From the NCBI RefSeq assembly GCF_017876815.1, contig NZ_JAGIOS010000004.1, forward strand, positions 60,001-92,000: 32,000 nucleotides of DNA. The letters run 5' to 3'. The stretch comes from Sinorhizobium meliloti. GTDB lineage: Bacteria; Pseudomonadota; Alphaproteobacteria; Rhizobiales; Rhizobiaceae. Shown here piece after piece: positions 1,547-24,835 of this stretch. The notes beneath the pieces were generated by a model. That model worked only from the letters and a program-made list of their open reading frames with translations, made no database searches and had not been told where the DNA came from. The translations under genes and the position numbers were made by a program. Numbering within the stretch: position 1 is the first letter of the stretch; every line of letters begins with the position of its first letter.

Positions 1547-2898
1547 TTGCGGTCATGGAAACGACGTCGCTGGACAGTCGTGACGAAGTATCTGCATTGC
1601 GCGCTCTTCGCTGAACAGGCGGCGAAACTTGAGAGCCAAGAAGCCGAAGTCAGCAAGCGCGACTCCATTATCGGTCTTCTACGCGCACAGTTGGAACTGC
1701 TCCGCCATCGGCAGCACGGTCCTTCCTCTGAAAAGATCGACCGGAAGATCGAGCAATTTGAACTGATGCTGGAGGAGATCGAGGCCTCCCGTGCCGAGGC
1801 TGAGATGCGTTCTGGCAAGAACCCTTTACCGGAGCTGGACGACGCATTCGAGAAGCCGAAGCGCAAACCGTTGCCCGATGGTCTTCCAACCGAAGAGCGG
1901 GTCTATGCAGCGCCCTGCAATTGTCCGACGTGTGGTGGCGCATCGTTCCTGAAGGCCGCCGACAAGGTCGTTCAGGTGATGGAGCACGTGCCGGCGTCCG
2001 TTAAGGTTGTCCGCCATGTCGAGAAGCGCATGATCTGCAGGGACTGCGATACGACGGTATCCGGCGAAATGCCTACCTTGCCGATCGAGCGAGGCAAGCC
2101 CGGACCGGGCTTGCTCGCGCATATCATGGTCGCCAAGTTCGACGATCACATTCCGCTCTATCGTCTATCCGAGATGTACGACCGGCTGGGAATAGACATC
2201 TCCCGCTCCGTCATGGCGGACTGGGTGGGCCGTGTGTCCGTTCTGCTTGCGCCGCTCATCTTGCTGATTAGAGCGCATATCGCAGCGGTCGACCGAATAC
2301 ATACGGATGATACCCCGGTCGATGTTCTCGACCCAGGGCGAGGAAGGACCAAAACCGGCAGGGTCTGGGTCTACGTCTTCGATGGTAGCGGCTACCAAGA
2401 TACCACTCCCGGAGCCATTGCCTAATACTATAGCCCCGACCGTAAGGGCGCGCATCCGGCCGACCATCTCGCAAACTTCAGCGGTGTGATGCATGCCGAT
2501 GGCTATGGTGGTTACAAGAAGCTCTACGGCAACCAGATCGTCGAGGCCCCCTGCATGGCGCATGTGCGCTGCAAGTTCCATGATGTGATCAAGCTGAAGC
2601 CATCCCCGATCGCCGACGAAGCGCTGTCGCGCATCGGTGCGCTCTACGATATTGAGGATCGTATCCGCGGGATGTCGGCTGACCAGCGGCGTACACTGCG
2701 CCAGCAACATGCCAGGCCCATTCTGGCGGATCTCAAGAGCTGGATAGAAGAGACGCTTTCGACGCTGCCACACAAGCAGAAGCTGGCCGAGGCAATGCGA
2801 TATGCCCTCTCGCGATGGGCAGCATTGAGCGTTTACATCGACGATGGCCGTGTCGAAATCGATAACAACATAGCTGAACGAGCCATGCGTCCGCTTGG
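1547..2898 (+). pseudogene. tnpC: IS66 transposase TnpC of element A, 5' part
   Basis: The translation shows CPxCGG..CRDC zinc-finger-like motifs, ..HIPLYRLSEMY.. and ..HTDDTPVDVLDPG..GRVWVY... There is an in-frame TAA at 2423-2425. Reading stops making sense after ..NNIAERAMRPLG at 2898, and the sequence continues exactly at 12594 (..IGRKNWLFAGSDKGG..). Confidence 0.85.
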
Positions 2899-2926
2899 CG
2901 GGCCTGAGTCATTACGCACTCCTTCT

Positions 2927-4986
2927 TTAAGTATCTGTAAACATTGGAAGCGTCTCCGCGTCGGCGATGTGACACGGGCGCGCCTTTCGGGCTATCGCGG
3001 CTTGGACCGTCGCAGAAGCCAGGTCGCTGGCCCGGATTTGGTACGGCGCGCCGGGAACCACCTGCTCAGCAGACAACATCTTCGTCTTGATCAGGTGGCG
3101 TATCCGATGGTTGGTAACGCCCAAGGCCGCCGCAGCCTCTGTCATGGTCATCCACTCGCCGTCCTTGTCTGCTGATTTGTACGCGTGGATTGCGCGTACG
3201 CGCCTTACAGAAGCGACACGGTGTGCCGTCCAGGTTTTTCCTTGCCCCGTGGGCATGCCCATTCGATTGAGCGACGCGGCGATATGTTCATCCGACCAGC
3301 GCCCAGCCATGCTGCGCATCACCCCCAGCGCATCCTCCGTGGTGGCACAACCGTGCTCGCCGCTCTGGGGTTTGCGTACTTTTAGCTCTGAATGCTGACC
3401 ACCCTTCCAATGGATCGTCAGCACCACCTCACGCACCGCATCGTCGACATCAACGACAATGTCGGCAATCATGGTACGGAGCAATTGCTGGCGCGCGCGC
3501 ATGGTCACATCGGGTGAATCCCAGGCAGCCTGTAGATTATCGGCAAGGTTCGTGAAGGTGTCTGGGTCGACCTCGATGGTCGAAGGACTGTCGGCAGGCT
3601 TGCGCACTTCCAGGTCTCGCACGCGGCGTAACGCAGTCTCCCAATTCTTCTCAAGCTGCGCAGCAATCAGACGGTTGTCGGGGTCACATGCCGCATAGCG
3701 CCGCTCGGCAAGGCTAGCCTCGTAGCGGGCCTGCCGCAGTTCCAAATCGTGAATGTGGCGCTGATCTTCCTGTCGCTCCCGGTGCATCCGCTCTGCTTCA
3801 AAGGTCGCCTCGATTGCTAACGGTTCTACCGCGCGCAACAACTCGCGCGCAACCGCCGCGTCGACCCGCGGGCCGCCGAACGTCATGCATCGCGGCAAGC
3901 CCATCATCAGATTTGGCTTGTCGCAGCGATAGACCGGCCGACTTTGCGGATTGCCCGTATAGGCAACACTTAGTCGCCGCCCACACCGTCCGCAGGTCAG
4001 TAGACCCGATAATAGCGCCTTGCCGCCGCGGCCCGATTTGGTCCCGCCCGAGCGGCCATAATTGTTAAGCGCCAGTTGCTGTTGGTTGCGCTCGTACTCG
4101 TCCCAGGTGATGTAACCTTCGTGATGGTCTCTGATCATTACCTCCCACGTGCCAGCCGGCTTGCCGTGCCCGTAAGTCCGCCGCGCCCGGCCATCGACGT
4201 TGGCAGTCCGCTTCTCGCTCTTTCCATAAACATAGACGCCGGCATAGAAGGGGTTTTTGAGCATTACGGTAGCGGACTGGCGTCCAGACGAAGCTGGTCA
4301 TGCGACCTTCATCGGACGGCCGTGGGAAATGGACCTGATCCTTCGTCATCGACAGCAGCACCTGACGTGCACTTCCAAGCTCATGGAAGCGGGTGAAGAT
4401 GGATCGGATTACCTCCTGCAGACGCAGATCAGGATCAAGCCCGAGCCCGGCCTCTCTATGCCAGATGTAGCCGAACGGTACAGAAAGGCGCAATTCGCCG
4501 CGCCGCGCCTTCGATCTGGCGGCATCGAGCATTCGGGCTCTTAGCACACCCAATTCAAACTCGCTGATACTGCCCTTCATGCCCAGTAGCAGACGATCGT
4601 TGGGCCGACATGGATTGTAGACACCGTCATGGTCTATGACGCGGGCTTCAACGAGACCGCATAGTTCGAGCAGATGGTGCCAGTCGCGGCCGTTGCGTGC
4701 GAGCCGTGAGGCATCGAAACACAAAACGGCACCAACTTTGCCGGCGCACAACAAGGCGACGAGACGATCAAAGCCGGGGCGTGCAACCGTTCCGCTGGCA
4801 GAGCGTCCGAGGTCGTCGTCGATGACCTCAATGTCGCCGAAGCCGCGTTGTCGCGCGACGTCAACAAGATCATACTGGTCGCTGGCTTTCCAGATTGGTC
4901 ATGACCTGCGACTGAGTGGATTGCCGCACATAAACGACTGCCTTGCGCGCGAGTAGCGCTGCCGGAATTAAGTCAGTGCTGGTCAT
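2927..4986 (-). pseudogene. Large serine recombinase of copy X, with at least two frameshifts
   Basis: The start reads MTSTDLIPAALLARKAVVYVRQSTQSQVMTNLESQR, and a frameshift near 4885 precedes QYDLVDVARQRGFGDIEVIDDDLGRSASGTVARPGFDRLVALLCAGKVGAVLCFDASRLARNGRDWHHL... A second shift lies near 4270 before MLKNPFYAGVYVYG..HEGYITWDEYERNQ..CGRCGRRL... It is colinear with the intact 696-aa paralog at 7540-9630. Confidence 0.85.
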
Positions 4987-5127
4987 CGTTGAGCTCCTCG
5001 ACGACCAGACCGGCAGCCTGCATCAGCAGGCAAGCCAGTGTTGATGTCGCCTGCTTGCGCTCTTTGTCGCTCAGTCCGTCGAGTGTTCGCGCCTTGAATA
5101 TCAGGTCGAGCTGTCGGCCCGACGCCG
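4973..5127 (-). pseudogene. C-terminal part of small ORF b of copy X, cut by IS66-B
   Basis: The translation ..GRQLDLIFKARTLDGLSDKERKQATSTLACLLMQAAGLVVEELNDDQH* is homologous to the tail of ORF b in copy Y (..DQLVLELERQ..GLVETLADLLLEALE..DDHEDHV*). The N-terminal 12 codons lie at 12279-12252. Confidence 0.5.
5120..5127. repeat. 8-bp target-site duplication of IS66-B (CGACGCCG), left copy
   Basis: CGACGCCG immediately precedes GTAAGCG at 5128, and an identical octamer lies at 12244-12251 just beyond the other terminus. IS66-family elements are known to make 8-bp duplications. Confidence 0.85.
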
Positions 5128-5149
5128 GTAAGCGCTCATTTCCATGCGC
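5128..5149. repeat. IS66-B terminal inverted repeat (tnpC-proximal end)
   Basis: GTAAGCGCTCATTTCCATGCGC is identical to the reverse complement of the other end. Confidence 0.85.
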
Positions 5150-5198
5150 GTTGACGCGGCCCGTTTGACCGGGGTCGCTGTGCGACGGCTGCATTGGA

Positions 5199-6818
5199 TC
5201 AGGCAGCGGCTGCTTTGGTGAAGTTGAAGGGCAAGAGATCGGTGATGTCAGTATCTGTTGCGCGCTGTGGCAATTCACTAAGCACGTGGCGCAAGTAGGC
5301 CAAGGGCTCGACGCCGCAGGCGCGACAGGTCAGCATGATGCTGTAGACGACAGCGCTGGCCCTGGCTCCCTCCACGGTATCGCTGAACAGCCAGGATTTT
5401 CTTCCAGTGGCAAAAATCCTGATATCGCGTTCGAGAAGGTTGTTGTCGATCGACATCCTGCCGTCTTCGGTGTAGCGCGTCAGGTATTCCCACTGGTTCA
5501 GGGTGTAGGATACGGCGTCGCCGATCTTGCTATCGGGCAAGACCTTCGGCGCGATGTCATCGAGCCATGCCTTGAGAGCGATCAGGATGGGGACGCTGTG
5601 TTGTTGGCGGAAACGGCGGATGCAGTCGGCTTGCGTTTCGCCAACTTCCGGCTTTTCGTTCTTGGCTTGGCTTTCAATCCGGTAGAGCTGCTCGAAGAAC
5701 TTCAGCGCCTGCTCCGGCGGTCCGCCGCCTTTCTTCCTTGTCTTCAGAGCATCGATGAAGCGACGCCTCGAATGGGCCATACACCCAATATGGGTCGCTC
5801 CTGCCAGAGTGCGCCAGGCGGTGTAACCATCGCTCATCAATATGCCGCGGTAGTCGCCGAGGAAGGCCTGCGGATAAATCTGGCCGCGGCCGGGTTGATA
5901 ATCGAGCAGCACGATCGGCTCGCCGCTGTCTTCACCGCTCCTGTATGCCCACATGAAGGATGTGCTGGTGGCCTCCCTGTCCTTTTCCTTCAGCACCTGG
6001 ACCGTTGTCTCGTCACCATGGATCAGCGGTTGTGAACGAAGCCGGAGCTTCAGCGCGTCATAGATGCGAGAGAGATGCCTCTCGCTCGAGCCGATCACCC
6101 AGTGACCCAAAGCACCGCGGCTGACGGGAACGCCGGCGCGCTCGAAGGCCTGGGCGAGACGGTAGAGCGGCGTGCCGTCGATGTATTTGTGGACCAGTGC
6201 AAATGCCAGCGTCGAGGCCGTGGCGATGCTGCCCGGCAAGGGCTGCGCGGGCATTGGCGCGAGAACGACAGGCGTGTTGATGCCGGTCCGGTCGCAATGG
6301 CGGCAGGCGTACTTGAACCGCACATTCTGCAGGACCTTGGCCTTCACCTCGATATGGAGCTGCTCGGTGACGGCCTCACCCATGCGATGCATCTGATGAC
6401 GGCAGCAAGGGCAGGCCTTCTGGCCGTCGGCAAGGTCATACTCGACACGCTCGCGCGGCAGGTGTTCCGGCAGGGGCTTGCGGCCACGCTTCTTGCCCTC
6501 CGGTTTCTCGATCGTCGCAAAACCGGTTTCCGGCAGGTCGACGACCTCGCCATCTTCTCCGCTGGCGTCGTCTTCATCGGCAACCTGCTCGGCTTCATCG
6601 AAGAGGCGGTCCACATGCTTTTCGCTCTTCGGCGCAAAACGATGCAGCCGCGCCAGCTCCAACTCTTCCTCGAGCTTGACCACGCGGGCGCTGAGCGCTT
6701 CTTTCTCGGCTTTCAGCGCGGCGATTTCGGCAGCATTTGCCGCCAACTGCGCCATCAGTTCTGCAACGCTTGGTTCGCCGGATCGAGTCATCGTAGTTTT
6801 GAATCTGAACCGCACCAC
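5199..6818 (-). CDS. tnpC: IS66 transposase TnpC of element B, intact (539 aa)
   Basis: This full-length ORF has a leucine-zipper-like N-terminus, CPCC..CRHC motifs, ..GDETTVQVL.., ..SIDNNLLERDIRIFATGRKSWLF.. and a conserved C-terminus. Confidence 0.9.
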   Translation of the reverse strand: MVRFRFKTTMTRSGEPSVAELMAQLAANAAEIAALKAEKEALSARVVKLEEELELARLHRFAPKSEKHVDRLFDEAEQVADEDDASGEDGEVVDLPETGFATIEKPEGKKRGRKPLPEHLPRERVEYDLADGQKACPCCRHQMHRMGEAVTEQLHIEVKAKVLQNVRFKYACRHCDRTGINTPVVLAPMPAQPLPGSIATASTLAFALVHKYIDGTPLYRLAQAFERAGVPVSRGALGHWVIGSSERHLSRIYDALKLRLRSQPLIHGDETTVQVLKEKDREATSTSFMWAYRSGEDSGEPIVLLDYQPGRGQIYPQAFLGDYRGILMSDGYTAWRTLAGATHIGCMAHSRRRFIDALKTRKKGGGPPEQALKFFEQLYRIESQAKNEKPEVGETQADCIRRFRQQHSVPILIALKAWLDDIAPKVLPDSKIGDAVSYTLNQWEYLTRYTEDGRMSIDNNLLERDIRIFATGRKSWLFSDTVEGARASAVVYSIMLTCRACGVEPLAYLRHVLSELPQRATDTDITDLLPFNFTKAAAA

Positions 6819-6845
6819 CGCGTCAACCGCAGAAGTTCAGAGCCG

Positions 6846-7046
6846 TCAGCCGGCGATCTGATATTGCCGCACAGGGTGGCGCACCATGGCGTCGATATCG
6901 ATGCCGTCGAGAATCCAGTGAAGCTGCTCAGTCGAAAGCGTCACCACCGCCGTCTCCCGGCGTGGCCATCTGAACCGATCTTCGGTCAATCGCTTCAGGA
7001 CCATCACAAAACCGGACCGATCGAAGAACAGGAGCTTCATCCGGTC
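6846..7046 (-). pseudogene. tnpB: IS66 TnpB of element B, C-terminal 66 codons (split by LSR copy Y)
   Basis: The translation is DRMKLLFFDRSGFVMVLKRLTEDRFRWPRRETAVVTLSTEQLHWILDGIDIDAMVRHP... Joined to 9810-9658 it gives an in-frame 117-aa TnpB, the normal size (the intact copy at 24479-24835 is 118 aa). Confidence 0.85.
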
Positions 7047-7126
7047 ACGCCAGCGACCGACATTCTACATACGGTTTTCGTTTTGCGACGATAGCCTATC
7101 CGTGGCATCCACTATTCGGCTGCAAG

Positions 7127-7543
7127 GTGCAGGTCTCGCGTTATCGTCGCGGCAAGACGCTGATGCGAATCCATACGGACGAGCGTCCCGATCATCTCTC
7201 CCGTGAGTTGCCGAACTGGATGTTTGACGAGACTTATTGCAGCGGCATGAGGCTTGGATCACCCGAGATCAGCATTGATGGCCTGAATGAATTGGCGGCC
7301 GCGTTGGCGTCGTTCGACGCGACTCAGGCAGGAGGCGCAAGATCTCGTCCTTCGAGGAAGAAGGAGAAGGGTGATGCGAAGCAGGCGACATCAAAATCGC
7401 GACCAACTCGTTCTGGAGTTGGAGCGTCAAAATCGTCAGGTTCCGGTGGTCAAGAACGTCAAAGGACTGGTGGAAACGCTGGCGGATCTTCTGTTGGAGG
7501 CTTTGGAAGCGAGCAGAACGGCGAAGACGGGAGGCGTAGATGA
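7127..7543 (+). CDS. Small ORF a of copy Y (hypothetical; conserved N-terminal WM-D---C-GM-LG motif)
   Basis: It starts with GTG, and its stop overlaps the recombinase ATG as ATGA (7540-7543). The N-terminal half (..LPNWMFDETYCSGMRLGSPEISIDGLNELAAAL..) is homologous to copy X (..AGWMVDPVVCAGMTMGLARVDLAALIELNGL..). The C-terminal half is low-complexity R/G/S and may be out of frame. Confidence 0.4.
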   Translation: MQVSRYRRGKTLMRIHTDERPDHLSRELPNWMFDETYCSGMRLGSPEISIDGLNELAAALASFDATQAGGARSRPSRKKEKGDAKQATSKSRPTRSGVGASKSSGSGGQERQRTGGNAGGSSVGGFGSEQNGEDGRRR

Positions 7544-7562
7544 CCACGAAGATCACGTCTGA
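7374..7562 (+). CDS. Small ORF b of copy Y (62 aa, hypothetical; basic N-terminus, helical acidic C-terminus)
   Basis: The ATG at 7374 is preceded by AAGGAG (7361-7366). The product is MRSRRHQNRDQLVLELERQNRQVPVVKNVKGLVETLADLLLEALEASRTAKTGGVDDHEDHV. The same frame, the same Shine-Dalgarno plus ATG arrangement and a homologous sequence occur in copy X. It overlaps the recombinase start. Confidence 0.4.
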   Translation: MRSRRHQNRDQLVLELERQNRQVPVVKNVKGLVETLADLLLEALEASRTAKTGGVDDHEDHV

Positions 7563-9630
7563 CCATCTGGGCCGCGCCGCGGTGGTCTATGTCCGCCAGT
7601 CAACCATGGCGCAAGTGACGGGCAATCTCGAAAGCCAGCGCCGGCAATATGATCTGGCTGGCGCCGCCGCAACGACCGGGTTTGCATCGGTAACTGTGAT
7701 TGATGATGACCTTGGACGCTCAGGCTCAGGCAGCGTGGAGCGACCCGGGTTTGAGCGGCTTGTCGCGCTGGTCTGCTCAGGCAATGTAGGAGCGGTCTAC
7801 TGCATCGAGGCATCGCGTCTGGCGCGCAATGGGCGGGACTGGCATCATCTGATCGATCTGTGCGCGCTCACCGGTACGCTGGTCATCGATCCAGATGGCG
7901 CCTTTGATCCAAGGCTTGTCAATGATCGTCTGCTGCTTGGGCTGAAAGGCACGATGTCGGAGTACGAACTGAGCTTGATCCGTCAGCGCGGCATTGCCGC
8001 GCGCGATTCCAAGGCGGGACGCGGGGAGTTCCGGTTCATGTTACCTCCGGGCTTCTGCTGGAGTGAGGCGGGCAAGATCGAGATCGATCCGGACGAACAT
8101 GTGGCGGAGACGATCAAGCTCGTCTTTGCCAAATTCCGGGAACTGGGAAGTGGGCGACAAGTCTTTTTGTGGCTGCGGTCGGCCGATATCAAGATGCCCG
8201 TCGTCTTGCGCAACGTGGAAGTGCGCAAGCTCGTCTGGAAGGCGCCAGCTTATCATAGCGTCATGCAGACCCTCCACAATCCACTCTACGCGGGCGCCTA
8301 TGCCTTCGGAAGGCGAGCACAACGAACGTTGATCATCGATGGTCGCGCTCGCAAGGCCAACGGGCTGCGCAAGCCCAGGGATGATTGGAGTGTATTGCTG
8401 CGCGACAATCATGAAGGTTACATCACCTGGCGGGAGTATGAAGAGAACCAGAAGCTTCTGACCGAGAACGCACACATGAAGAGGAATTGTGATCGCAAAT
8501 CGGCGCGCGGCGGCCGTGCCCTATTGACGGGACTGATGCGATGCGGCCGCTGTGGCCGAATGATGCGCGTCTTCTACGGCAGCGCAAAAGGCAACGCGCA
8601 TCGCTATCAGTGCCGCGGCGACGACGCTCGTGTGGGTCTTGGGCTTTGCATCGGAATTGGCGGCGTGAGGGTCGATCGTGCCGTGGCCACTCAGATTCTG
8701 GAAGCGGTTTCGGATCGCGCTGTCGAAGCGGCGATCTTCGCCTCGGATCAGGTCGAGCGGTCCGCAAGAGATGTTATAGCGGCAATTGAGCGGGACCTTG
8801 AAGGCGCACGCTATGAGGCGTCACTGGCCGGACGCAGATACGAGCTGGTCGATCCGGCCAAACGTCATGTCGCACGCGAACTGGAAGCCCGTTGGAACGA
8901 TGCACTGGAACGTGTGAGCGTGCTTGAGCGCAAGATCGAAGAATTGTCCGCGCTGTCGGCAGCACGTCCTGCAATTGATCGTGGTCGGCTTCTACAGCTT
9001 GCCCATGACTTACCGACAGTCTGGAATGCACCATCAACCGATACGCGGACAAAGCAGCGGCTCATCCATATTCTGGTCCAGGAGATCATCTGCGATCTCG
9101 ACGATACGACCAACGAGGCTGTGCTCTTGATCCATTGGACCGGCGGTCGCCATACCGAAGTGCGCGTGGCGCGGGTCAAGACTGGCCGATATCCGAGCGA
9201 CATGGCACCGCCCGCCGTAGAGGCGCTACGAAAGCTGGGCGGACATTGGCCAGATCGGGAGCTCGCAGTGTCCCTCAATCGGATGCTTTGCAAGACCGGT
9301 GATGGTGAGGGTTGGACGGCCGTGCGTGTCCGCGACATGCGCGAGCGGCTGGGCATTCCAGAATATGATCCCACAAAAGCGGGCAGTCCCGTGATTAGCC
9401 TGATGAAAGCTGCCGAAAAGCTCGGTATCTGCATCGGATCGGCCAAGAGCCTGGTGCAGAAAGGAATTCTACCTGCAACGCAGATCCTTCCAGGCTCGCC
9501 ATGGATGGTTCCCATAGAAGCACTAACGTCAGAGGCCGTTCTGATAGGGGTGCAGGGTGTGGTTGGGCGGCGGCCCAAGATTTATGAAGATTATCAATAC
9601 GATAAAGTTGTCAGATTGCCCGGACTCTAA
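7540..9630 (+). CDS. Large serine recombinase (696 aa), intact
   Basis: It has a resolvase-type catalytic N-terminus (AVVYVRQSTMAQV..ESQRRQY..DDDLGRSGS..IEASRLARNGRDWHHL), a recombinase domain (..NPLYAGAYAFGRR..), a zinc-ribbon-like CGRCGRMM..YQC, a long coiled-coil-like region and a C-terminal extension. Confidence 0.9.
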   Translation: MTTKITSDHLGRAAVVYVRQSTMAQVTGNLESQRRQYDLAGAAATTGFASVTVIDDDLGRSGSGSVERPGFERLVALVCSGNVGAVYCIEASRLARNGRDWHHLIDLCALTGTLVIDPDGAFDPRLVNDRLLLGLKGTMSEYELSLIRQRGIAARDSKAGRGEFRFMLPPGFCWSEAGKIEIDPDEHVAETIKLVFAKFRELGSGRQVFLWLRSADIKMPVVLRNVEVRKLVWKAPAYHSVMQTLHNPLYAGAYAFGRRAQRTLIIDGRARKANGLRKPRDDWSVLLRDNHEGYITWREYEENQKLLTENAHMKRNCDRKSARGGRALLTGLMRCGRCGRMMRVFYGSAKGNAHRYQCRGDDARVGLGLCIGIGGVRVDRAVATQILEAVSDRAVEAAIFASDQVERSARDVIAAIERDLEGARYEASLAGRRYELVDPAKRHVARELEARWNDALERVSVLERKIEELSALSAARPAIDRGRLLQLAHDLPTVWNAPSTDTRTKQRLIHILVQEIICDLDDTTNEAVLLIHWTGGRHTEVRVARVKTGRYPSDMAPPAVEALRKLGGHWPDRELAVSLNRMLCKTGDGEGWTAVRVRDMRERLGIPEYDPTKAGSPVISLMKAAEKLGICIGSAKSLVQKGILPATQILPGSPWMVPIEALTSEAVLIGVQGVVGRRPKIYEDYQYDKVVRLPGL

Positions 9631-9657
9631 CAGAGGGATGCATTATGAAACGCGCTG

Positions 9658-9810
9658 GCGGCGGCGATTGCAAAAGGCAAAGACCGCAGGCGCAAACGGG
9701 TCGAGCTCCATCGTCTCCTGCACCAGGACCGCAAGGCTGTTGATGCCGGCGCGGAAGTCGATCGGTTCGCGGTGCAGGTAGACCTTGAGATCAGCGCCCA
9801 GTCTGAACAT
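9658..9810 (-). pseudogene. tnpB: IS66 TnpB of element B, N-terminal 51 codons
   Basis: The translation MFRLGADLKVYLHREPIDFRAGINSLAVLVQETMELDPFAPAVFAFCNRRR then runs into the end of copy Y. Confidence 0.85.
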
Positions 9811-10249
9811 GGCCCAATGCTCCAATGACAGCCGTCAACGCATCCACATCCCTGCATTCCAGCGAAAGCTTCACGCCGTTTGGCAGCAACGCGCTGATTT
9901 TGGATAAACCTGACGGATGGCCCGTTTTCTCCAGTGATGCTCGTTGTTCTTCATCACACGTGACCGACATATCCAGCGAGCAGGTCCCGACAGGCAGGCT
10001 GCCGTCTGCTGCCACGACCGGGATAAACGCCGATCGTGGAGATACCGCCAGGGGGCCAGACTCCCTGGCCTCCTTGACCCACTTGCGCAGTAGGTTGGCA
10101 TTGATCCCATGCGTAAGCGCAAGGCCGGATATCGACACACCAGGTTCAAGGCAGGCCGCAACAAGCCGCGCCTTTGATCCTGGATCGTAGCGGCGTCGAC
10201 CATCGCGCCCCACATGCCGCACACGCAGTTTCTGCTCTTCGTCACTCAT
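9791..10249 (-). CDS. tnpA: IS66 TnpA (Orf1) of element B
   Basis: This 152-aa ORF has the HTH-like segment ..SKARLVAACLEPGVSISGLALTHGINANLLRKWVKE.. typical of IS66 Orf1. It overlaps the tnpB start. Confidence 0.85.
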   Translation of the reverse strand: MSDEEQKLRVRHVGRDGRRRYDPGSKARLVAACLEPGVSISGLALTHGINANLLRKWVKEARESGPLAVSPRSAFIPVVAADGSLPVGTCSLDMSVTCDEEQRASLEKTGHPSGLSKISALLPNGVKLSLECRDVDALTAVIGALGHVQTGR

Positions 10250-10308
10250 ATTTGGTGTCCACCTATTTTAAGTGGACACTTCATGCGGCAGAGGCATCAA
10301 CGAGAAAA

Positions 10309-10330
10309 GGCGCATGGAAATGAGCGCTTA
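10309..10330. repeat. IS66-B terminal inverted repeat (tnpA-proximal end), lacking its outermost base, which sits at 12243 beyond the intron
   Basis: The plus strand reads GGCGCATGGAAATGAGCGCTTA, followed by the intron GTGCGG. Confidence 0.85.
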
Positions 10331-10358
10331 GTGCGGCTGCAAAGCCGATGAAAGATAG

Positions 10359-12185
10359 TTGATGAAAGTTCAACACGGAGAAGAAGTGGCGAATCACTCT
10401 GACCCCGAGTCATGCGGCGCACATCGCGAGGTGTGCGTCGAAGCGTTGACAGGGGAAACCGGCAGGCCGGCCATTGAGCCGCGAAATGATCAATTCGGGA
10501 TGCCGACGCTGTTAAGCGAAGCGGAAGGCAACACGGTGCATGGCGTCAATCGCAAGCCATGCCCCGATCCCGCGCGGTCGGAGACCCTGTGCATGTCGGG
10601 AAGTCTTTCATACGGAAGCAGCGAGATCTCATCAGTGTCCAGTGCAAATGGACTGGACGGGGCTGGGAAGGTCGTTGATCATAATCCGGTCGTCAACGCT
10701 GATGAGAAGTCGGATACACCCATAGTACCGCAGAAGTTGCCGAACAAAGGAGATGATCCTGCGGAGGCAATGGAGGGAAGGGGTGTAATCGGAGGGAACG
10801 CCTTTGAGACTCCAGCGTGCCGGACGCAGAGCCGGATAAAACACGCTTCGATGGGGATCGAAGGTGTACGGGAAGCCGCCAAGCGGGACCCGAAGATGCG
10901 TTTCACGGCGCTGATGCACCACATCACTCCGACGCTATTGGTGAAGAGCTTCCATGCGCTGCGCAAGCAAGCGGCGAGCGGTGTGGATGGCGTGACGTGG
11001 TACGACTATGAGAAGACCCTCGAAGGGCGCGTGCACGAACTGCACCGGGAGATTCAATCCGGTGCCTATCGTGCTCAACCCTCCCGACGGGTCTACATTC
11101 CGAAGAATGACGGCAGGCTCCGTCCTCTCGGCATTGCAGCGCTGGAAGAAAAAGTCGTGCAGATGGCCGTCACCACGGTTCTGAACGCGATCTATGAGCA
11201 AGACTTCCTCGGCTTCTCATACGGGTTCCGGCAAGGAAGGGGCCAGCATGACGCGCTGGACGCCTTGTGGGTTGGGATCGACAAGCGGAAGATCAACTGG
11301 ATACTGGACGCGGATATTCGCTCGTTTTACGATGAAATCGATCACGAGTGGATGCTTCGTTTCCTGTCGCATCGAGTTGGTGACCGCCGGCTGATACGTC
11401 TGATCCACAAATGGTTGAAAGCGGGCACGATTGAGGATGGCCGCCGCGTCGCATCAACGCGAGGAACTCCTCAGGGCTCTGTAATTAGCCCGGTGCTATC
11501 GAATATCTATCTGCATTACGCATTGGATTTATGGGTCCAGCAATGGCGTACTCGAAATGCTAAAGGCGACGTGATCATTGTACGTTATGCCGACGACAGC
11601 GTGATTGGGTTCCAGTACGAAGGAGAGGCGCAGCGCTTCCTGCAAGCATTGCGGGAGCGTCTCGCTCAGTTTGGTTTGCAGCTACACCCGGAAAAGACGC
11701 GGCTGATACGCTTTGGGCGGTATGCTGCGCGAAACTGCCGGGAGCGTGGTATCCGCAAGCCAGAGACCTTCGACTTTTTGGGATTCACGCACTGCTGCGG
11801 CAGGCGGCGCAATGATGGGGGCTTCAAGATTGTCCGTCTAACGATCAAGAAGCGCATGCGCACGACGCTGGAGGCCATTCGGGGAACGCTTATGCGACGA
11901 CGCCATGAACCGGTGGCAGTAGTAGGTCGGTGGCTACGGCAAGTGTTACAGGGGTATTTGAACTACCATGCGGTGCCAGACAATCTGAGAAGATTGGGAG
12001 GATTCCGCTGGGAAGTTGGTCGCGCTTGGCGACACGCGCTGATGCGTCGGAGCCAACGACACCGGCTGTCTTGGGAGCGTTTCCAAAGGCTGCTTCGCAA
12101 ATACCTGCCACCGTGCCGCCTGATGCATCCGCATCCAGATGCTCGGCTTACCGTCACAACATCCGATAGGAGCCGTATGCGGTAG
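10359..12185 (+). CDS. Group II intron-encoded reverse transcriptase/maturase; the true start is probably internal (ATG 10770 or 10851, or a non-ATG codon near 10690)
   Basis: RT blocks are present (..RVYIPKNDGRLRPLGIAALEEKVVQ.., ..RGTPQGSVISPVLSNIYL.., ..IVRYADDSVIGF..), as is the maturase region (..FDFLGFTH.., ..GYLNYHAVP..). No HNH endonuclease tail was seen. The first ~140 codons run through intron domains I-III. Confidence 0.9.
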   Translation: MMKVQHGEEVANHSDPESCGAHREVCVEALTGETGRPAIEPRNDQFGMPTLLSEAEGNTVHGVNRKPCPDPARSETLCMSGSLSYGSSEISSVSSANGLDGAGKVVDHNPVVNADEKSDTPIVPQKLPNKGDDPAEAMEGRGVIGGNAFETPACRTQSRIKHASMGIEGVREAAKRDPKMRFTALMHHITPTLLVKSFHALRKQAASGVDGVTWYDYEKTLEGRVHELHREIQSGAYRAQPSRRVYIPKNDGRLRPLGIAALEEKVVQMAVTTVLNAIYEQDFLGFSYGFRQGRGQHDALDALWVGIDKRKINWILDADIRSFYDEIDHEWMLRFLSHRVGDRRLIRLIHKWLKAGTIEDGRRVASTRGTPQGSVISPVLSNIYLHYALDLWVQQWRTRNAKGDVIIVRYADDSVIGFQYEGEAQRFLQALRERLAQFGLQLHPEKTRLIRFGRYAARNCRERGIRKPETFDFLGFTHCCGRRRNDGGFKIVRLTIKKRMRTTLEAIRGTLMRRRHEPVAVVGRWLRQVLQGYLNYHAVPDNLRRLGGFRWEVGRAWRHALMRRSQRHRLSWERFQRLLRKYLPPCRLMHPHPDARLTVTTSDRSRMR

Positions 12186-12242
12186 TGCCGCACGTACGGA
12201 TCTGACCGGGGGGCGATGGGTAACCATCGTCCCTACCGGGAC
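12170..12242 (+). ncRNA. Group II intron domains V and VI (catalytic hairpin and branch-point hairpin)
   Basis: The folds were done by hand and are described under the intron feature. Confidence 0.7.
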
Positions 12243-12243
12243 C

Positions 12244-12251
12244 CGACGCCG
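12244..12251. repeat. 8-bp target-site duplication of IS66-B (CGACGCCG), right copy
   Basis: It is identical to 5120-5127. Confidence 0.85.
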
Positions 12252-12445
12252 GCGCCAGCGTATTGCGGGATCTCATCATCTTCCTCCTGAGTGATTCTAC
12301 GTCCACCTCGGAAGAGTGCAGGCTTGTCGCCGCCTGTGACCAGCCCGTTAAGTTCGATCAGCGCCGCAAGATCCACGCGTGCCAGACCCATCGTCATGCC
12401 GGCGCACACCACAGGATCAACCATCCATCCGGCAATCGAAACCAC
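12252..12445 (-). pseudogene. Small-ORF region (ORF a N-terminal part, ORF b first 12 codons) of LSR copy X, separated from the rest by IS66-B
   Basis: ORF a reads ..VVSIAGWMVDPVVCAGMTMGLARVDLAALIELNGLVTGGDKPALFRGGRRITQEEDDEIPQYAGAGVG. ORF b starts at AGGAGGAAGATGATG (ATG at 12279 or 12276) in the +1 frame: MMRSRNTLAPAS, continued at 5127. Confidence 0.45.
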
Positions 12446-12593
12446 GGCACCTGTCGGCCCTAAAACATGCAGAAATTGACCTGTCGCTCGTTCGTCGACG
12501 CGGCGAACGCTAACCTTTTGTCCAAAATATGGATGCCAGCGATAATGAACCTCGACTTCATCGCCGACATGGGCAGAATGAACGGGGGATGGG

Positions 12594-12814
12594 AATCGGA
12601 AGAAAAAACTGGCTCTTCGCCGGGTCAGACAAGGGCGGCGAGCGCATCGCCAATATCCTGACGATCATCGAGACTGCCAAACAACATGGCCTCAAATCCG
12701 GAGGCCTATCTCACAGACGTCCTGACCCGGATCCAGAGCCATTCAAAGGATCGGCTCCAGGAATTGCTGCCGTGGCAGTGGGCGCCGGCGAAAGACCGAT
12801 ACGAGGCTGCGTGA
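12594..12814 (+). pseudogene. tnpC: IS66 transposase TnpC of element A, 3' part
   Basis: The translation ..IGRKNWLFAGSDKGGERIANILTIIETAKQHGL is followed by a one-base frameshift (extra A near 12697). The expected tail NPEAYLTDVLTRIQSHSKDRLQELLPWQWAPAKDRYEAA* then ends at 12812-12814. Confidence 0.8.
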
Positions 12815-13119
12815 TGGCACGGTCGAGGTTCATCTACACGCTCAAAGAAGTCGCCGTCATGATCGGGGAGAATCTCGAATTAATCGAGGAGGTGACGGCC
12901 AACTCGGACAATATCGCCGAAGGCGAATTGGTTTATGTCCGCGATGGCAGTGAAGATGGCACCAAAGGCCTGACCGAAAATGGAATTGACGACCTTCGAG
13001 ATCTCCTGGCCGACATACGAACGTGGGATGGTGGAATCCGCCAGTTCCTCGTCGATGAACAATGCGACCTCGAGATGATCGAGCGCGTCATGGCAGATGA
13101 GGTGAAGCGCGTCCTATAG
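12814..13119 (+). CDS. Hypothetical acidic 101-aa protein, extra ORF inside IS66-A downstream of tnpC
   Basis: Its ATG overlaps the tnpC stop (TGATG, 12812-12816). It lies between tnpC and the IS terminus at 13164. The product, MARSRFIYTLKEVAVMIGENLELIEEVTANSDN.., matched no family I recognise. Confidence 0.45.
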   Translation: MARSRFIYTLKEVAVMIGENLELIEEVTANSDNIAEGELVYVRDGSEDGTKGLTENGIDDLRDLLADIRTWDGGIRQFLVDEQCDLEMIERVMADEVKRVL

Positions 13120-21618: not shown

Positions 21619-21805
21619 TGAACAGCGCGGATAAGTGGAATTCCTGCCTGTGTTTGGCTTAGATGCCGGAAACAGGAGATAGCATGACGAGACGACCGCG
21701 CCGGAACCACAGCCCGGCTTTCAAGGCGAAAGTAGCGCTTGCCGCGATCAGGGGCGAACAGACCTGGCGGAACTGTCGCAGCAATTCGACGTGCCGAACA
21801 GGTCG
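21619..21805 (+). mobile_element. IS3-family left end with a frameshifted orfA fragment
   Basis: A TG-initiated end (TGAACAGCGCGGATAAGTGG..) is followed by an ATG at 21684 encoding MTRRPRRNHSPAFKAKVALAAIRGEQT. A one-base loss precedes ..LAELSQQFDV-PN.. Homology stops near 21805. Confidence 0.6.
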
Positions 21806-21814
21806 CGTTTGTCT

Positions 21815-22139
21815 TCGACACTGGCACTTGGCCATCCTCGAAAGTAGGGAAAGCCGCTGGTCTGATGAACACATCGCGGCCACCTTAAACCGGATGGGCG
21901 ATTGCCCAAGGCAAGACCTGGGCGGCAAAGCGCGTCGGCTCAACACGGCGCGCGTGGAATTTGCCTGCCCAACAAGTTGTCCCGCGCGCTCCGTACCAGA
22001 TTAACGCCACGGATCTTCGCAATCTTCGGGTCGCCACTCGATGACGCCTAAAGGGCGCGCGTGGCAGTCCCCGCCGGAAACTCAAAAATCCAATGTTTGC
22101 AGTCACTTGAAGAGGGAGTGTGTAATGAATGCGACGTTG
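21815..22139 (+). pseudogene. Third copy (Z) of the LSR element: decayed 3' end of the recombinase gene plus the element terminus
   Basis: The translation ..AILESRESRWSDEHIAATLNRMG is followed by a frameshift, then ..GQGKTWAAKRVGSTRR.., a ~35-codon deletion, then ..QQVVPRAPYQINATDL.. and ..PMFAVT* at 22110. The terminus CCAATGTTTGCAGTCACTTGAAGAGGGAGTGTGTAATGAA is nearly identical to copy X (reverse complement of 2906-2945). Confidence 0.7.
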
Positions 22140-22172
22140 CAAAAACTCTGATGTCGCGCTCAAAGATGGGTA
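22140..22172 (-). pseudogene. tnpC: Scrap of a fourth IS66-family tnpC abutting the end of copy Z
   Basis: The minus-strand translation ..IFERDIRVFAT matches IS66-B TnpC (LLERDIRIFAT-GRKSWLF). Its nucleotide sequence differs from the IS66-A copy. Confidence 0.6.
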
Positions 22173-22227
22173 GTGTGCTGAAGGTTCTGCAAATTCACTG
22201 AGAGAGGCGGTCATGGCAGGTTGGTGA

Positions 22228-22236
22228 TGTTGAACG
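22228..22236. repeat. Target-site duplication of IS66-C, left copy (TGTTGAACG; 8 of these 9 nt)
   Basis: The same 9-mer lies directly outside both termini (22228-22236 and 25384-25392). Confidence 0.8.
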
Positions 22237-22295
22237 GTGAGCGCAACGAATGGCCCACGGCTTTCATGATTGACGGATAGGTTTCTGGCGCTCGG

Positions 22296-22859
22296 TCAGA
22301 ACTTCTGCTTTGCCCGCTTCGGCATAAAGTAGGTTCGGATATTGACGAGTGCTTCGGCGACGTCAGCAGCATCCTGGCTTGTCACTTTCCGTTTTGCCTC
22401 GCCGAGCTTGCGGATGGGTGCGATGATATCCCCAGTGACGGCATGACCACGAAGAACCGGCTGCCAAAGCCTCGGCGCGTATCCAGTTCCCAACAAAAAG
22501 CAGAGGTCCCAATCGAAGATATCAAAGGTCTGATCATCGATCCGGGTGAACCGGGGCCGGTGGTCTTTCGGTGTTTCGGAAAGGCTAGCCGAGATGCGGT
22601 TATATTCCGCAACAATGGTCTGTACGGCCCGATGCTCGGTCGTTTCCATCGGCAGGTTCAGGGCATCCGGACCGGTCAGTTCCGGGATCCATTTGCGTGG
22701 GTCGATGAACTTCGGTCCGATGATGAGAGCCGTAAGATAACCATCGAGACCGCTCATTGACCAGATTGGCGATGCTGGACGGCGTGCCCTGATAAACGCC
22801 TCGAACGCCTTTTCATCGAGCTTCGGTCGTGCCGTCGTCCCTTGGCTGTTCTGTGTCAT
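22296..22859 (-). CDS. UPF0149/YecA-like family protein, carried inside IS66-C
   Basis: The translation MTQNSQGTTARPKLDEKAFEAFIRARRPASPIWSMSGLDGYLTALIIGPKFIDPRKWIPEL.. matches the LDGFLTAL-type motif I recall for UPF0149 proteins. The ATG at 22859 overlaps the tnpC stop as ATGA. The stop at 22296 is 59 bp inside the IS terminus. Confidence 0.6.
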   Translation of the reverse strand: MTQNSQGTTARPKLDEKAFEAFIRARRPASPIWSMSGLDGYLTALIIGPKFIDPRKWIPELTGPDALNLPMETTEHRAVQTIVAEYNRISASLSETPKDHRPRFTRIDDQTFDIFDWDLCFLLGTGYAPRLWQPVLRGHAVTGDIIAPIRKLGEAKRKVTSQDAADVAEALVNIRTYFMPKRAKQKF

Positions 22860-24463
22860 GCCGCCCGTCGCTCCTGACGTGCAATGGCCTCGCGTTCGGC
22901 CTTCCAGGCCCATGGGAAGAGCGTATCCATCCGGTTCGCGGGCACCTTGCCCGAGATGATGCGCTCAAGCACATCGGCAAGCCAGACCTCGGGGTCAACA
23001 CTATTGAGCTTTGCTGTGTTGACGAGCGATGCCAGGACCGCGAAGGACTTGCCACCGCGTTCGTTGCCCACGAACAACGAGTTCTTCCTCGTCAGAGCCA
23101 CCGATTTCATTGAACGCTCGACCACATTGGAGTCCGCTTCGATCCGGCCATCCTCCAGGAAGGCTGCCAGCCCGTTCCAATGATTGAGCGCGTAGGAGAC
23201 GGCCTTGCCCAGCGCCGATTTTGACGACACCTCTTCGCTCAGTTCGGTGAGCTGGACCTTCAGTTCTCGCATGATGGGTGCTGTCTCGCGACGCCGTACC
23301 GTGAGCCGGGTATCGGCACTTTCGCCGCGCAGTTTCGCCTCGATGCGATAGACCTCGGCGATCCTGGCCAGGATCGACAGCGCCTCCGAAGAGCCGGTCA
23401 GCTTGACGACATCGACGAACTTGCGTCGCGCGTGAGCAAGGCAGAACGCCAGCCGCATGGGGGCGACATTGCTCTTCCCCCGGCGCTTGGCCAAGGTTTT
23501 ATAGGCCTGGTATCCATCGACCTGAAGTACGCCGGCAAACGACGACAGTTGCCCCTCGACCTCGCGAGCGCTGCGGCTTTCAGCAAAAGTATAGGCCACC
23601 GCCGGCGGCGCCGGACCATTCCATGGCCGGTCGTCGACCGCCTGCGCCCAGAGTTGACAAAGCTTGGTGCGTTTGCGTCCCGGATCGAGCCGCGGAAGCG
23701 GCGTCTCGTCACAAAACACCCTTGGCTGGGAGCGGATGAAGGCGGTAAGCGCATCGTAGAGAAGCTCGAGCCACCAGGCGACCCGCGTCACCCAGGCGCC
23801 AAGCGTGCCGCGATCGATGATCACGCCGCAGGAGGCAAGCATCTGCGCCTGGCGATGCAGCGGCAGATGCCAGGCAAACTTCGAAACGGCGATATGGGCT
23901 GCAAACGCCGTAGTCACCATGCCGCCGTCCATCACGCGCGCCGGTGCGGGCGCTTGCACAATGACGCTTTCGCAGGCCCGGCATGCATAGCGCGGCCGGA
24001 TCGTCCGCTTCACCCGGACAACCGCCGGCACGATGTCGAGCGCCTCACTGACGTCCGTGCCGATGCAATGAAGCTCGAACGAGCAGCACGGGCAAATCTT
24101 GCTCTCCGGCTCGATGAGCTCTTCATACCGTGAGAGGTGCTTGGGCAAACGGCCGATGTTGCGCGACGGCGATCGCCGCTCCTGTCTTGGCCCTTCAGCC
24201 ACGGGTGCAACATCGTCATTGGCCGCCTCGGGAATGTCGCTGAGATCGCCAAGCTCGAGCGTCGCCTGCGTCGGGTCGATCGCCGTCATCTTCTCCGATT
24301 TCGGTCCAAAGAGCTGACCCTCCAGGAAGGCAACGCGCGCCTTGAGGTCGGCATTCTCCGCATCGAGCGAGAGAATGATCCGGCTCAATTGGGCGGCATC
24401 CTGAGGTAAAGGGTCGGGTCGAAGCGGCATGGCTGACCCTAGCACATGTTCCTGAATCTTCAA
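22856..24463 (-). CDS. tnpC: IS66 transposase TnpC of element C, intact (535 aa)
   Basis: It has CPCC..CRAC motifs, ..CDETPLPRLDPG.., ..DSNVVERSMKSVALTRKNSLFVG.. and a conserved tail. Confidence 0.9.
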   Translation of the reverse strand: MKIQEHVLGSAMPLRPDPLPQDAAQLSRIILSLDAENADLKARVAFLEGQLFGPKSEKMTAIDPTQATLELGDLSDIPEAANDDVAPVAEGPRQERRSPSRNIGRLPKHLSRYEELIEPESKICPCCSFELHCIGTDVSEALDIVPAVVRVKRTIRPRYACRACESVIVQAPAPARVMDGGMVTTAFAAHIAVSKFAWHLPLHRQAQMLASCGVIIDRGTLGAWVTRVAWWLELLYDALTAFIRSQPRVFCDETPLPRLDPGRKRTKLCQLWAQAVDDRPWNGPAPPAVAYTFAESRSAREVEGQLSSFAGVLQVDGYQAYKTLAKRRGKSNVAPMRLAFCLAHARRKFVDVVKLTGSSEALSILARIAEVYRIEAKLRGESADTRLTVRRRETAPIMRELKVQLTELSEEVSSKSALGKAVSYALNHWNGLAAFLEDGRIEADSNVVERSMKSVALTRKNSLFVGNERGGKSFAVLASLVNTAKLNSVDPEVWLADVLERIISGKVPANRMDTLFPWAWKAEREAIARQERRAA

Positions 24464-24478
24464 GCAAATCCAATAAGA

Positions 24479-24835
24479 TCAGCCCACTTTCGTCGGCCGC
24501 TTTACGACGTTCCGTTTAACCCGAGTCCAGTCGATACCGGCCAGCAAAAGCGAGAACTCTTGGCTACTCATCTGCATCGCGCCATCGCGGATCGGTGGCC
24601 AAACGAACTTGCCCGCCTCAAGCCACTTCGTCGCTAGGATCATGCCCGACCCGTCCCAATAAATGCAGCGCAGGCGATCGCACCGCTTGGCGCGGAACAC
24701 AAACACGTCACCACAGTAGGGATCAGCCGAAAGCGCTGACGCCACCAGCGCAACAAGGCCATTCATGCCGCGCCGGAAGTCGACAGGCTGCGTCGCCACC
24801 ATGATCTTCACGCCATTCGGCGAAAGTCCGATCAC
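24479..24835 (-). CDS. tnpB: IS66 TnpB (Orf2) of element C, intact (118 aa)
   Basis: The translation is ..VATQPVDFRRGMNGLVALVASALSADPYCGDVFVFRAKRCDRLRCIYWDGSGMILATKWLEAGKFVWPP... Confidence 0.9.
   Translation of the reverse strand: MIGLSPNGVKIMVATQPVDFRRGMNGLVALVASALSADPYCGDVFVFRAKRCDRLRCIYWDGSGMILATKWLEAGKFVWPPIRDGAMQMSSQEFSLLLAGIDWTRVKRNVVKRPTKVG

Follow-up and report, generated by a model that had tools for sequence, protein, structure and literature searches.

Compact large serine recombinase elements that probably integrate at one conserved codon of IS66 tnpC: two copies in Sinorhizobium meliloti and their relatives

We analysed a stretch of 32,000 nucleotides (nt) from Sinorhizobium meliloti (assembly GCF_017876815.1, contig NZ_JAGIOS010000004.1, positions 60,001 to 92,000), hereafter called the window, in which transposition genes of IS66-family insertion sequences (IS) are interrupted by copies of a small mobile element. 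A first-pass annotation, made from the sequence alone, had described two diverged copies, X and Z, at the same codon of tnpC in two different IS66 elements. Our analysis bore this out: X and Z each abut IS66 tnpC at bases 1-2 of one shared Gly/Ala codon (..NNxxERxxRxx[G/A]xGRKNWLF..), the sixth codon after ER and the eighth counting from E, after whose second base the break had been placed. X and Z were found to be the ends of ~2.58-kb elements, each consisting of a gene for a large serine recombinase (LSR) of ~690 amino acids (aa) and two small open reading frames (ORFs), orfA and orfB. A third copy, Y, represents a sister lineage. All three were found with the flank string of the first-pass annotation and pairwise alignment; repeat finding within the window did not pick them up because the copies are too diverged. 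The terminus shared by X and Z reads CCAATGTTTgCAGtcACTTgAAGAgGGAGTGtGTAATGA, with 33 of the last 39 nt before divergence identical. Positions 22091-22128 on the forward strand match the reverse complement of 2909-2950, and the stretch ending at 22091-22139 (+) aligns with the reverse complement of 2899-3330, the 3' end of the minus-strand recombinase gene.

The positions of X and its host gene, tnpC of IS66-A, are listed in Table 1. The host gene was identified from the Pfam DDE_Tnp_IS66 architecture of the intact paralogue and from a tblastn search with TnpC references against L001, a homologous locus, in addition to ORF translations, and had already decayed, with an in-frame stop near 2425. 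L001 is the intact homologue on S. meliloti pSymB. Because it is colinear with the window at 2229-5128 and then at 12242-13165, X spans 2899-12591 and was split later at 5128/12242. An 11-nt duplication (GGCCCGACGCC, at 5118-5128 and again at 12242-12252) flanks the block of IS66-B plus group II intron. IS66-B comprises tnpC (5199-6818), tnpB, which is split at 7047/9661, and tnpA (9791-10249). The nesting in 1547-12816 is four levels deep, from IS66-A tnpC through element X and IS66-B to element Y; within the nested block the group II intron adjoins the left edge of IS66-B and abuts the resumed X sequence. The DNA of the X recombinase gene is 95.5% identical to the intact copy in L001, and its Resolvase, Recombinase and Zn_ribbon_recom domains are spread over two ORFs in different frames, 2927-4264 and 4065-4754. 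The 3' arm of X holds the recombinase stop codon, a Shine-Dalgarno (SD)-like GGAG and an ATG at 2912-2910. On the tnpC strand the flank of X reads NNIAERAMRPLG, and the gene resumes at 12592 with GG-A ATC GGA AGA AAA AAC TGG, that is (G)IGRKNWLF, as annotated before. GG is the sole dinucleotide common to both junctions of X that also restores the tnpC frame (CTT GGA ATC GGA AGA).

Copy Z is a remnant with an internal deletion of ~114 nt, and its left end is cut by an IS3 orfA fragment. The reverse complement of its flank reads FERDIRVF + GC. The whole of 22140-22172 had been read as tnpC ending in FAT. About 26 nt of it (22141-22166) resemble tnpC, the first 24 flank bases agreeing with those of L002, an intact Z-type copy, at 22 of 24 positions. 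The full 33 nt do not, and the 'AT' of 'FAT' turned out to be spelled largely by the element's own spacer. Upstream of ER the Z flank reads ..STLPI, where DGRxxIDNNxx is usual, with a stop 12 codons upstream. The flank of L002 is unambiguously tnpC (..TDDGRMPIDSNLLERDIRIFA, then TGRKSWLF beyond the junction): its terminus adjoins ..TDDGRMPIDSNLLERDIRIF-GC, and the other side reads GC-C ACT GGA AGA AAA TCC TGG, or (A)TGRKSWLF. Because intact Z-type relatives carry the same terminus against tnpC, the Z flank is tnpC-derived. The IS3-family orfA fragment (MTRRPRRNHSPAFKAKVALAAIRGEQT..) at 21663-21810 (+) adjoins the truncated left end of Z. As the neighbour that truncated the Z flank, IS66-C was considered and rejected, its inverted repeats starting only at 22223; for 22167-22222, the ~55 nt between the tnpC remnant and that repeat, no match was identified.

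In all relatives the element has the geometry [core]-N10-TCATTCTGCCCAT...recombinase...GGrG-TGCAcA-ATGA-N10-[core]. The arrangement ATGA-N10-[2-nt core]-flank was found in at least 80 relatives, and element-only contigs (2565-2596 nt) begin and end exactly at the core, in agreement with the earlier proposal of a 10-nt tail after the shared ATGA. Both arms carry an inverted motif, GCAcAATGA / GCAGAATGA (GCAnAATGA), at positions 11-19 from the core. When a synthetic circle attachment site (attP) was used as BLAST query, matches broke exactly at the junction in 89/89 plasmid records. The core is identical at both junctions in 56/68 X/Z-type copies. Cores shifted by +1 or -1 were rejected for X and many other copies, in which the junctions then disagree or the tnpC frame breaks. 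By their sequence, the element ends have the anatomy of an LSR attP, dyad arms around a 2-nt core, and the 2-nt break of the first-pass annotation is the crossover core.

The target was compared across 85 related copies in loci L001-L084, whose LSRs are 61-100% identical; 77 of them have at least one readable flank. The relatives came from a scan of one genome per species, which gave at least 80 loci with recombinases 61-94% identical to that of X. The scanned loci belong to Alpha-, Beta- and Gammaproteobacteria and to bins labelled Acidobacteria, Gemmatimonas, Verrucomicrobia and others, and X-like DNA was also present in 185 plasmid records from Rhizobium, Sinorhizobium, Agrobacterium, Mesorhizobium and others. 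The results showed that 70/77 copies with a readable flank (91%) abut tnpC at exactly the same codon. In 53 copies tnpC lies on both sides, antisense to the recombinase; ten have a single readable flank, which is tnpC at that codon; three have tnpC on one side only; and in four the 3' junction is bordered by a C-terminal part of tnpC in sense orientation. Because 70/77 copies share the codon, chance is excluded as its cause. With the junctions of the database copies aligned, the claim of site-specific targeting was borne out, the insertions falling mostly at one codon instead of being scattered; that the site is the most conserved part of tnpC holds loosely, in that it lies within the conserved NNxxER..R...GRKNWLF block at the C-terminal end of DDE_Tnp_IS66.

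The 53 copies with two tnpC flanks occupy 53 distinct 68-nt targets, which form 52 clusters at 90% identity. When the flanks were joined across one copy of the core, both tnpC halves fell in a single frame, unbroken in most (..NNAAERALRGIALGRKSWLFAG.. and variants). Element identity and flank identity were weakly correlated (r = 0.29), with averages of ~49% for the flanks of the 53 targets and 66% for the elements. Several pairs of elements that are 99-100% identical (L003/L004, L046/L047, L050/L052, L064/L065 and L067/L068) have flanks only 27-57% identical on at least one side, and L003 excised in silico left a sequence identical at 137/140 positions to the uninterrupted IS66-B tnpC of the window. 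Taken together, the distinct targets, the identical elements in differing flanks and the L003 excision match indicate that the insertions are independent, site-specific and, in some genomes, recent, which agrees with the earlier view that X and Z do not derive from one duplicated junction. These data also bear on the alternative that the cassette is non-autonomous, an ancestral and vertically inherited part of one IS66 subfamily that inserted once long ago and was spread by IS66 transposition. Composite units of IS66 and element could be mobilised in trans by other IS66 copies, and the near-uniform orientation (46:3 antisense) would fit such a history. The number of distinct targets and the low flank identity and correlation speak against it, however, as do identical elements in unrelated tnpC genes, the intact element-free IS66 copies in the same window, and the existence of attP-junction contigs (described below) and element-only contigs. 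We regard it as very improbable.

The recombinase itself was examined in the intact copy of Y, where Pfam reported PF00239 (Resolvase, 2.5e-21), PF07508 (Recombinase, 1.8e-10) and PF13408 (Zn_ribbon_recom, 1.5e-7). The catalytic domain is N-terminal (residues 14-162 of 696 in Y) and is followed by LSR-specific domains. The catalytic-serine motif VYVRQSTxxQ is invariant among the recombinases compared, and the nearest solved structures are those of SPbeta and Bxb1-type integrases. DUF4368 was not among the Pfam matches of the recombinases. An extra C-terminal region of ~150 aa, with a putative helix-turn-helix (HTH) at residues ~616-660, was noticed in the LSR (L001 3928-6000, minus strand); its match to the excisionase-type HTH model TIGR01764 is sub-threshold (22.2 bits, cut-off 28.8), and the region might contribute to site recognition or directionality. 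The domain order of an LSR, a shared 2-nt core with no longer target duplication, restoration of the target on removal in silico, dyad symmetry of attP and the attP junction itself, all features of an LSR integrative element, were found here, and we assign X and Z to this mechanistic class, which would account for their target specificity.

A homing mechanism other than serine recombination, either intron- or intein-like or an endonuclease-driven gene conversion into the tnpC motif, was also considered, as a conserved coding motif of a multicopy gene is a typical homing target and a true group II intron lies nearby. We consider this the least probable of the alternatives. Being antisense to tnpC, the element could not be removed from its transcript by splicing; Rfam gave no intron signal inside X, Y or Z, the only intron being at 10365-12242; and the LSR is encoded without any endonuclease or reverse transcriptase. 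Moreover, the ends are dyad-symmetric around a 2-nt core, orientation in the Y lineage follows the core, and a circle junction exists.

Copy Y lies in tnpB of IS66-B, and its recombinase is 44% identical to that of X. The core, CG, is at 7048-7049 and 9659-9660, with the left end set by the family geometry and the tnpB frame. The orfA body runs from 7049, orfB occupies ~7287-7562, the intact recombinase gene (696 aa) occupies 7540-9630, and the SD and ATG are at 9645-9647. The flanks ..AVFAFCNRR-CG and CG-T GAC CGG ATG AAG.. together rebuild NRRRDRMKLL, and the attachment-site geometry is the same as in X and Z. Among 80 metagenomic relatives of Y (64-98% identical), 33 have both flanks and rebuild tnpB at ..FRG(R/K)R-[G/A]-D(L/R)xK.., 19 in sense and 14 in antisense orientation, and 23 further copies have tnpB on the single available flank. 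In this lineage orientation follows the core as read on the recombinase strand: GG copies are in sense, CC copies are antisense, and copies with the palindromic GC occur in both. Polarity set by the core is a rule established for serine integrases. Judged from these sequences, the polarity of the Y lineage strongly supports a serine-recombinase mechanism.

Two metagenome contigs, L165 and L166, were found to carry the predicted attP junction. They were reached via the N-termini of database orfA homologues, two of which begin with the N-terminus predicted for the circle junction. L165 (JGI Ga0182038_10281753) encodes LSR residues 523-690 and a stop codon, then reads AAGAAGGA, ATGCACA and ATGA-CTCAAGCATC-GC-CATCACCCGT-TCATTCTGCCCAT, and continues with orfA, orfB and LSR residues 1-109; in spacers and core it agrees fully with L014, an integrated copy. 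L166 (ENA k141_2149456) opens with 49 nt from the 3' end of the element, linked via an AC core to the 5' end, and at its far end the same 3' end of the element is joined to a flank. The attP junction was not found in the 164 fetched loci, IMG/VR or the plasmid assemblies. These results showed that the attP junction exists in nature, and the junction contigs probably represent free circles.

The attP junction also appears to divide a gene. orfA encodes ~100 conserved residues (HSAHVGxEVEVHYRWHP..AAWMLDP..C..M..G.PRV..AL..L), and orfB, in another frame, encodes ~60 aa (..RQLxLxFD....ER....LAxLLMQAAG..) and overlaps the recombinase start. The frame of orfA is open to the extreme 5' end of the element, and its first internal in-frame start is at median codon 36, inside the predicted fold. 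At the other end of the element, the AATGA of the 3' arm contains an ATG, with an SD-like GGAG/GGGG upstream in 75/78 X/Z-type and 68/70 Y-type copies. The fixed N10-core-N10 spacing places this ATG in the reading frame of orfA across the circle junction, as seen in 63/66 X/Z-type and 49/53 Y-type copies. In the frame of the junction ATG the codon-position entropy of orfA is 0.96/0.83/1.50, which supports coding. As the SD and ATG are at the 3' end and the body is at the 5' end, full-length orfA would be complete only in the excised circle. We infer that the circle would be the sole source of full-length OrfA. Given the overlap of orfA, orfB and the recombinase gene, translation of orfA from the circle may boost recombinase synthesis, which would be analogous to the junction promoters of Tn4451 and several IS families. 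A sigma-70 promoter at the 3' end was considered and rejected: a TATAAT-like box overlaps the ATG, and there is no -35 at workable spacing. In the AlphaFold model of OrfA, residues 10-80 are confident and form an SH3/Tudor-like barrel followed by helices; Foldseek against the PDB returned generic SH3/Tudor/KOW barrels (E ~0.05-0.2).

It is also possible, although in our view less likely, that these are LSR elements of the kind proposed whose orfA is not restricted to the circle: AATGA/GGAG would be a recombinase binding site, and integrated copies would translate orfA from start codons that are fortuitous or non-canonical. The first nine codons, which are spacer, lack a coding signature, and the motif is mirrored on the other arm, where a start function is impossible. 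An in-frame start before codon 18 occurs in 12/65 elements and in 11 of those 12 is codon 7, the first codon wholly inside the element. Where tnpC reads ..K-S-W.. (TCA TGG), the antisense strand gives an ATG in the orfA frame (L005, L007; P0004, P0016, P0018), which gene callers use, and some integrated copies may still make an N-terminally different OrfA. On the other side, two lineages with recombinases of only 44% identity have both retained the frame, the SD-like sequence and the ATG; in most elements the N-terminal strands, which are conserved and confidently folded, are not preceded by any internal start; and gene callers give orfA homologues heterogeneous N-termini, which vary wildly in the databases and are drawn from whatever flank is present.

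From these observations we propose, with a probability of about 0.88, that X and Z are compact LSR integrative elements that excise as an attP circle and integrate into an attachment site (attB) in IS66 tnpC. The element would excise as a circle carrying attP, with the consensus ..GGrG-TGCAcA-ATGA-N10-[core]-N10-TCATTCTGCCCAT.., and would leave a restored tnpC behind. For strains with intact copies, such as S. meliloti ml56 (pSymB, CP140921) and S. medicae ml42 (pMl2, NZ_CP140903), the predicted circle junction is ..GCGCAATGACTCAGGCCCG-CC-CATCCCCCGTTCATTCTGCCC... The LSR, the presumed catalyst, would recombine attP conservatively with attB inside tnpC, exchanging strands at the 2-nt core formed by bases 1-2 of the Gly/Ala codon in ..ERxxRxx[G/A]xGRKNWLF... 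The integrated element would inactivate its IS66 host, and on excision tnpC would regain its exact sequence. IS66 occurs in multiple copies, is carried on plasmids and can be dispensed with by the host. The orfA that spans attP, made from the circle only, may help to drive or control re-integration, and either orfB or the C-terminal HTH region of the recombinase may supply directionality control.

Several observations weigh against this proposal. Seven of the 77 copies lie outside tnpC, and most of these have the recombinases that diverge furthest. Head-to-tail tandem copies could be the source of the junction contigs. None of the copies X, Y and Z in the window is demonstrably active; X carries frameshifts and is interrupted, and of Z only a stump is left. 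orfA and orfB have no matches in Pfam, NCBIfam or PHROGs, with no homologues of known function detected, and AATGA could be conserved purely as a protein-binding motif. The cores differ by one base between the two junctions in ~12/68 X/Z-type copies (among them L003, L004, L022, L033, L039, L047, L050, L057 and L072) and ~6 Y-type copies (L088, L091, L100, L106, L115 and L122), the differing base always being the second of the target codon; canonical LSR chemistry should not give such mismatches directly. Copies of the X/Z type with the palindromic core GC are antisense to tnpC by 46:3, with the exceptions among L024, L032, L035 and L044.

As to the mismatched cores, L003 has GG at one junction though the corresponding empty site is GC, and L050 and L052 have a common 3' flank but differ in the core and 5' flank. 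Possible sources are integration despite one mismatch, followed by replication, and recombination between copies in sites with different cores. As to orientation, a palindromic core should not fix it, and the 46:3 bias therefore means that something beyond the core biases or selects the orientation of GC copies. In the X/Z lineage, copies with non-palindromic cores follow the polarity rule: L015, with AC, is antisense, and L024, with the complementary GT, is sense. In L032 and L044 the flanks on both sides are C-terminal parts of tnpC, which is suggestive of rearrangement between copies. The most divergent recombinases are found outside IS66 genes in L058, L067, L073, L078, L079, L026 and L060 and, for the Y type, in L147, L152-L158 and L160; these sites may be secondary sites or mark lineages with new targets. 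The L073 site (..EALRDL-A-RWLYRQ..) is faintly like the tnpC target.

The remaining features of the window are included in Table 1. IS66-C carries an extra ORF of 205 aa (UPF0149, 22296-22913) downstream of tnpC and inside its repeats. The RepA gene, ctRNA_p42d and the S-element together identify the window as part of a Rhizobiaceae repABC plasmid.

Table 1. Coordinates of the elements, their targets and other features in the window
Feature	Position	Strand	Description
IS66-A tnpC, N-terminal part	1547..2898	+	ends ..NNIAERAMRPL + GG; from ORF translations
X crossover core, recombinase-3' junction	2897..2898	.	GG on tnpC strand, CC on recombinase strand
X 3' arm (predicted attP P' half-site)	2899..2950	-	reads ..CCAATGTTTACAGATACTTAA-AGAAGGAG-TGCGTA-ATG-A-CTCAGGCCCG
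X large serine recombinase gene	2927..4986	-	pseudogene, at least 2 frameshifts
X orfB, C-terminal part	4973..5128	-	..GRQLDLIFKARTLDGLSDKERKQATSTLACLLMQAAGLVVEELNDDQH; X cut at 5128 by IS66-B
Later insertion inside X: IS66-B (carrying copy Y) and group II intron	5129..12241	-	gap relative to L001
X 5' part	12242..12591	-	predicted attP P half-site TCATTCTGCCCAT at 12581-12569, spacer 12591-12582, orfA body PSPVHSAHVGDEVEVHYRWHPYFG..
Second GG core (12592-12593) and resumed IS66-A tnpC, C-terminal part	12592..12816	+	(G)IGRKNWLFAGSDKGGER.., frameshifted further on
Copy Z, decayed recombinase 3' remnant and 3' arm	21843..22138 (start approximate)	+	ATG 22125-22127, spacer 22129-22138
Z crossover core GC	22139..22140	.	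ATGA + 10 nt spacing as in at least 80 relatives; L002 has GC at both junctions
Remnant of third IS66 tnpC (..FERDIRVF)	22141..22166	-	~26 nt survive
Copy Y, sister-lineage element	7048..9660	+	antisense in IS66-B tnpB (..FCNRR-R/DRMKLLFFD..)
Unoccupied target site in IS66-B tnpC	5410..5411	-	GC of ..ERDIRIF-GCC-ACT GGA AGA..
Unoccupied target codon in intact IS66-C tnpC (22856-24463)	23097..23098	-	GC of GCT in ..ERSMKSV-A-LTRKNSLF..
Group II intron	~10331-12242	+	Rfam group-II-D1D4-6 (194.8 bits) and Intron_gpII; reverse transcriptase ORF 10359-12185, RVT_1
IS66-C, intact	22223-25397	-	inverted repeats 22223-22258 and 25362-25397
ArdC-like antirestriction gene	27175-28245
ParA-like RepA	28633-29850
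ctRNA_p42d	30884-30930	-
S-element	30971-31038

The elements were compared with known systems. Tn4451/Tn4453 (TnpX) and Tn5397 (TndX) are LSR-moved transposons with a circular intermediate. Lyras and Rood are said to have reported in 2000 that the circle junction of the Tn4451 type creates a promoter for tnpX. The elements described here resemble them in having an LSR as the single mobility enzyme and in their predicted circle excision and exchange at a 2-nt core, but are only 2.6 kb long instead of at least 6 kb, lack cargo genes and have no DUF4368 match. Their target is a strict coding motif of ~40-60 bp, in contrast to the relaxed GA-type targets of TnpX and TndX, and their junction would assemble an ORF (SD, ATG and body) rather than, or besides, a promoter. 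Durrant et al. mention a TndX-like LSR subfamily with relaxed targets and cargo, in whose clade DUF4368 is common (PMC10083194). In the portions of the text and supplements of that LSR survey covered by our search, IS66 is not mentioned (PMC10083194). LSR elements in IS66 tnpC or tnpB were not described in any paper that our literature searches brought up, although the coverage of subscription journals was thin and an earlier description is possible.

With phage LSRs (phiC31, Bxb1, SPbeta SprA/YokA, A118) the elements share the Resolvase-Recombinase-Zn ribbon order, dyad arms, a matching 2-nt core, polarity from the core and integration into conserved coding sequences. They differ in that there is no phage, only three genes in 2.6 kb, and an extra C-terminal recombinase region of ~150 aa, and in that the target is a gene of another transposable element, hence with many attB copies per genome. 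RIT elements are likewise small recombinase-only elements of Alpha- and Betaproteobacteria, and one that inactivates an IS66-family tnpA gene was reported in Cupriavidus metallidurans (PMC2864759). That association with IS66 is a single observation, and RIT elements consist of three consecutive tyrosine recombinase genes with other chemistry and ends; here the sole enzyme is a serine recombinase, and orfA and orfB have no recombinase domain. The element is also IS-sized and presumably mobilised by a serine recombinase like IS607, but with a 690-aa LSR, an N-terminal catalytic domain and a strict target. The TnpA of IS607 belongs to the small serine recombinases; its MerR-like HTH is N-terminal, its catalytic domain C-terminal, and its target specificity low.

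Elements that hunt other elements are known, such as the 'res hunters' Tn5053/Tn402, the IS1111-attC group, which targets integron attC sites, and RmInt1-type group II introns in IS. As in the present case, a conserved stretch of a second mobile element serves them as a landing pad that is harmless, mobile and multicopy, but their enzymes are of the DDE, DEDD or reverse transcriptase type instead of an LSR; we know of none that is an LSR element or that targets IS66 tnpC or tnpB. Integration-dependent switches are known as well, among them attP sites inside a gene (mycobacteriophage immunity) and the circle-junction promoters of IS911, IS30, IS110 and IS621. In these, too, the recombination site splits an expression unit, and the integrated and excised states express different products. 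Here start signals are split from the body of a small ORF, in contrast to the C-terminus truncation of the phage switches and the promoter assembly of the IS.

Beyond the proposal for X and Z, we give an even chance to the broader idea that these elements form an undescribed, widespread and minimal 'IS-hunter' class, with two lineages keyed to tnpC (..R..[G/A].GRKNWLF) and tnpB (..FRGrR[G/A]D..K), an orfA switch confined to the circle, and re-keying of the core (GGN, GCN, GTN, ACN) by mismatch-tolerant recombination, at which the one-base differences between junction cores hint. For annotation, the finding explains many pairs of 'recombinase family protein' and 'hypothetical protein' and many broken IS66 transposases in rhizobial plasmids and Proteobacteria. 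For engineering, it provides natural LSR/attP/attB sets by the dozen whose cores and orientations are known, among them near-identical enzymes on divergent attB, which are useful for studies of LSR specificity and as integration tools. The ORF that spans attP offers a simple, checkable case of expression gated by element topology. For the biology of the IS66 family, the elements would be a case of layered parasitism, in which one mobile element is specialised on the tnpC or tnpB of another and silences IS66 copies, and IS66 would offer a conserved, multicopy and horizontally mobile landing pad at no cost to the host.

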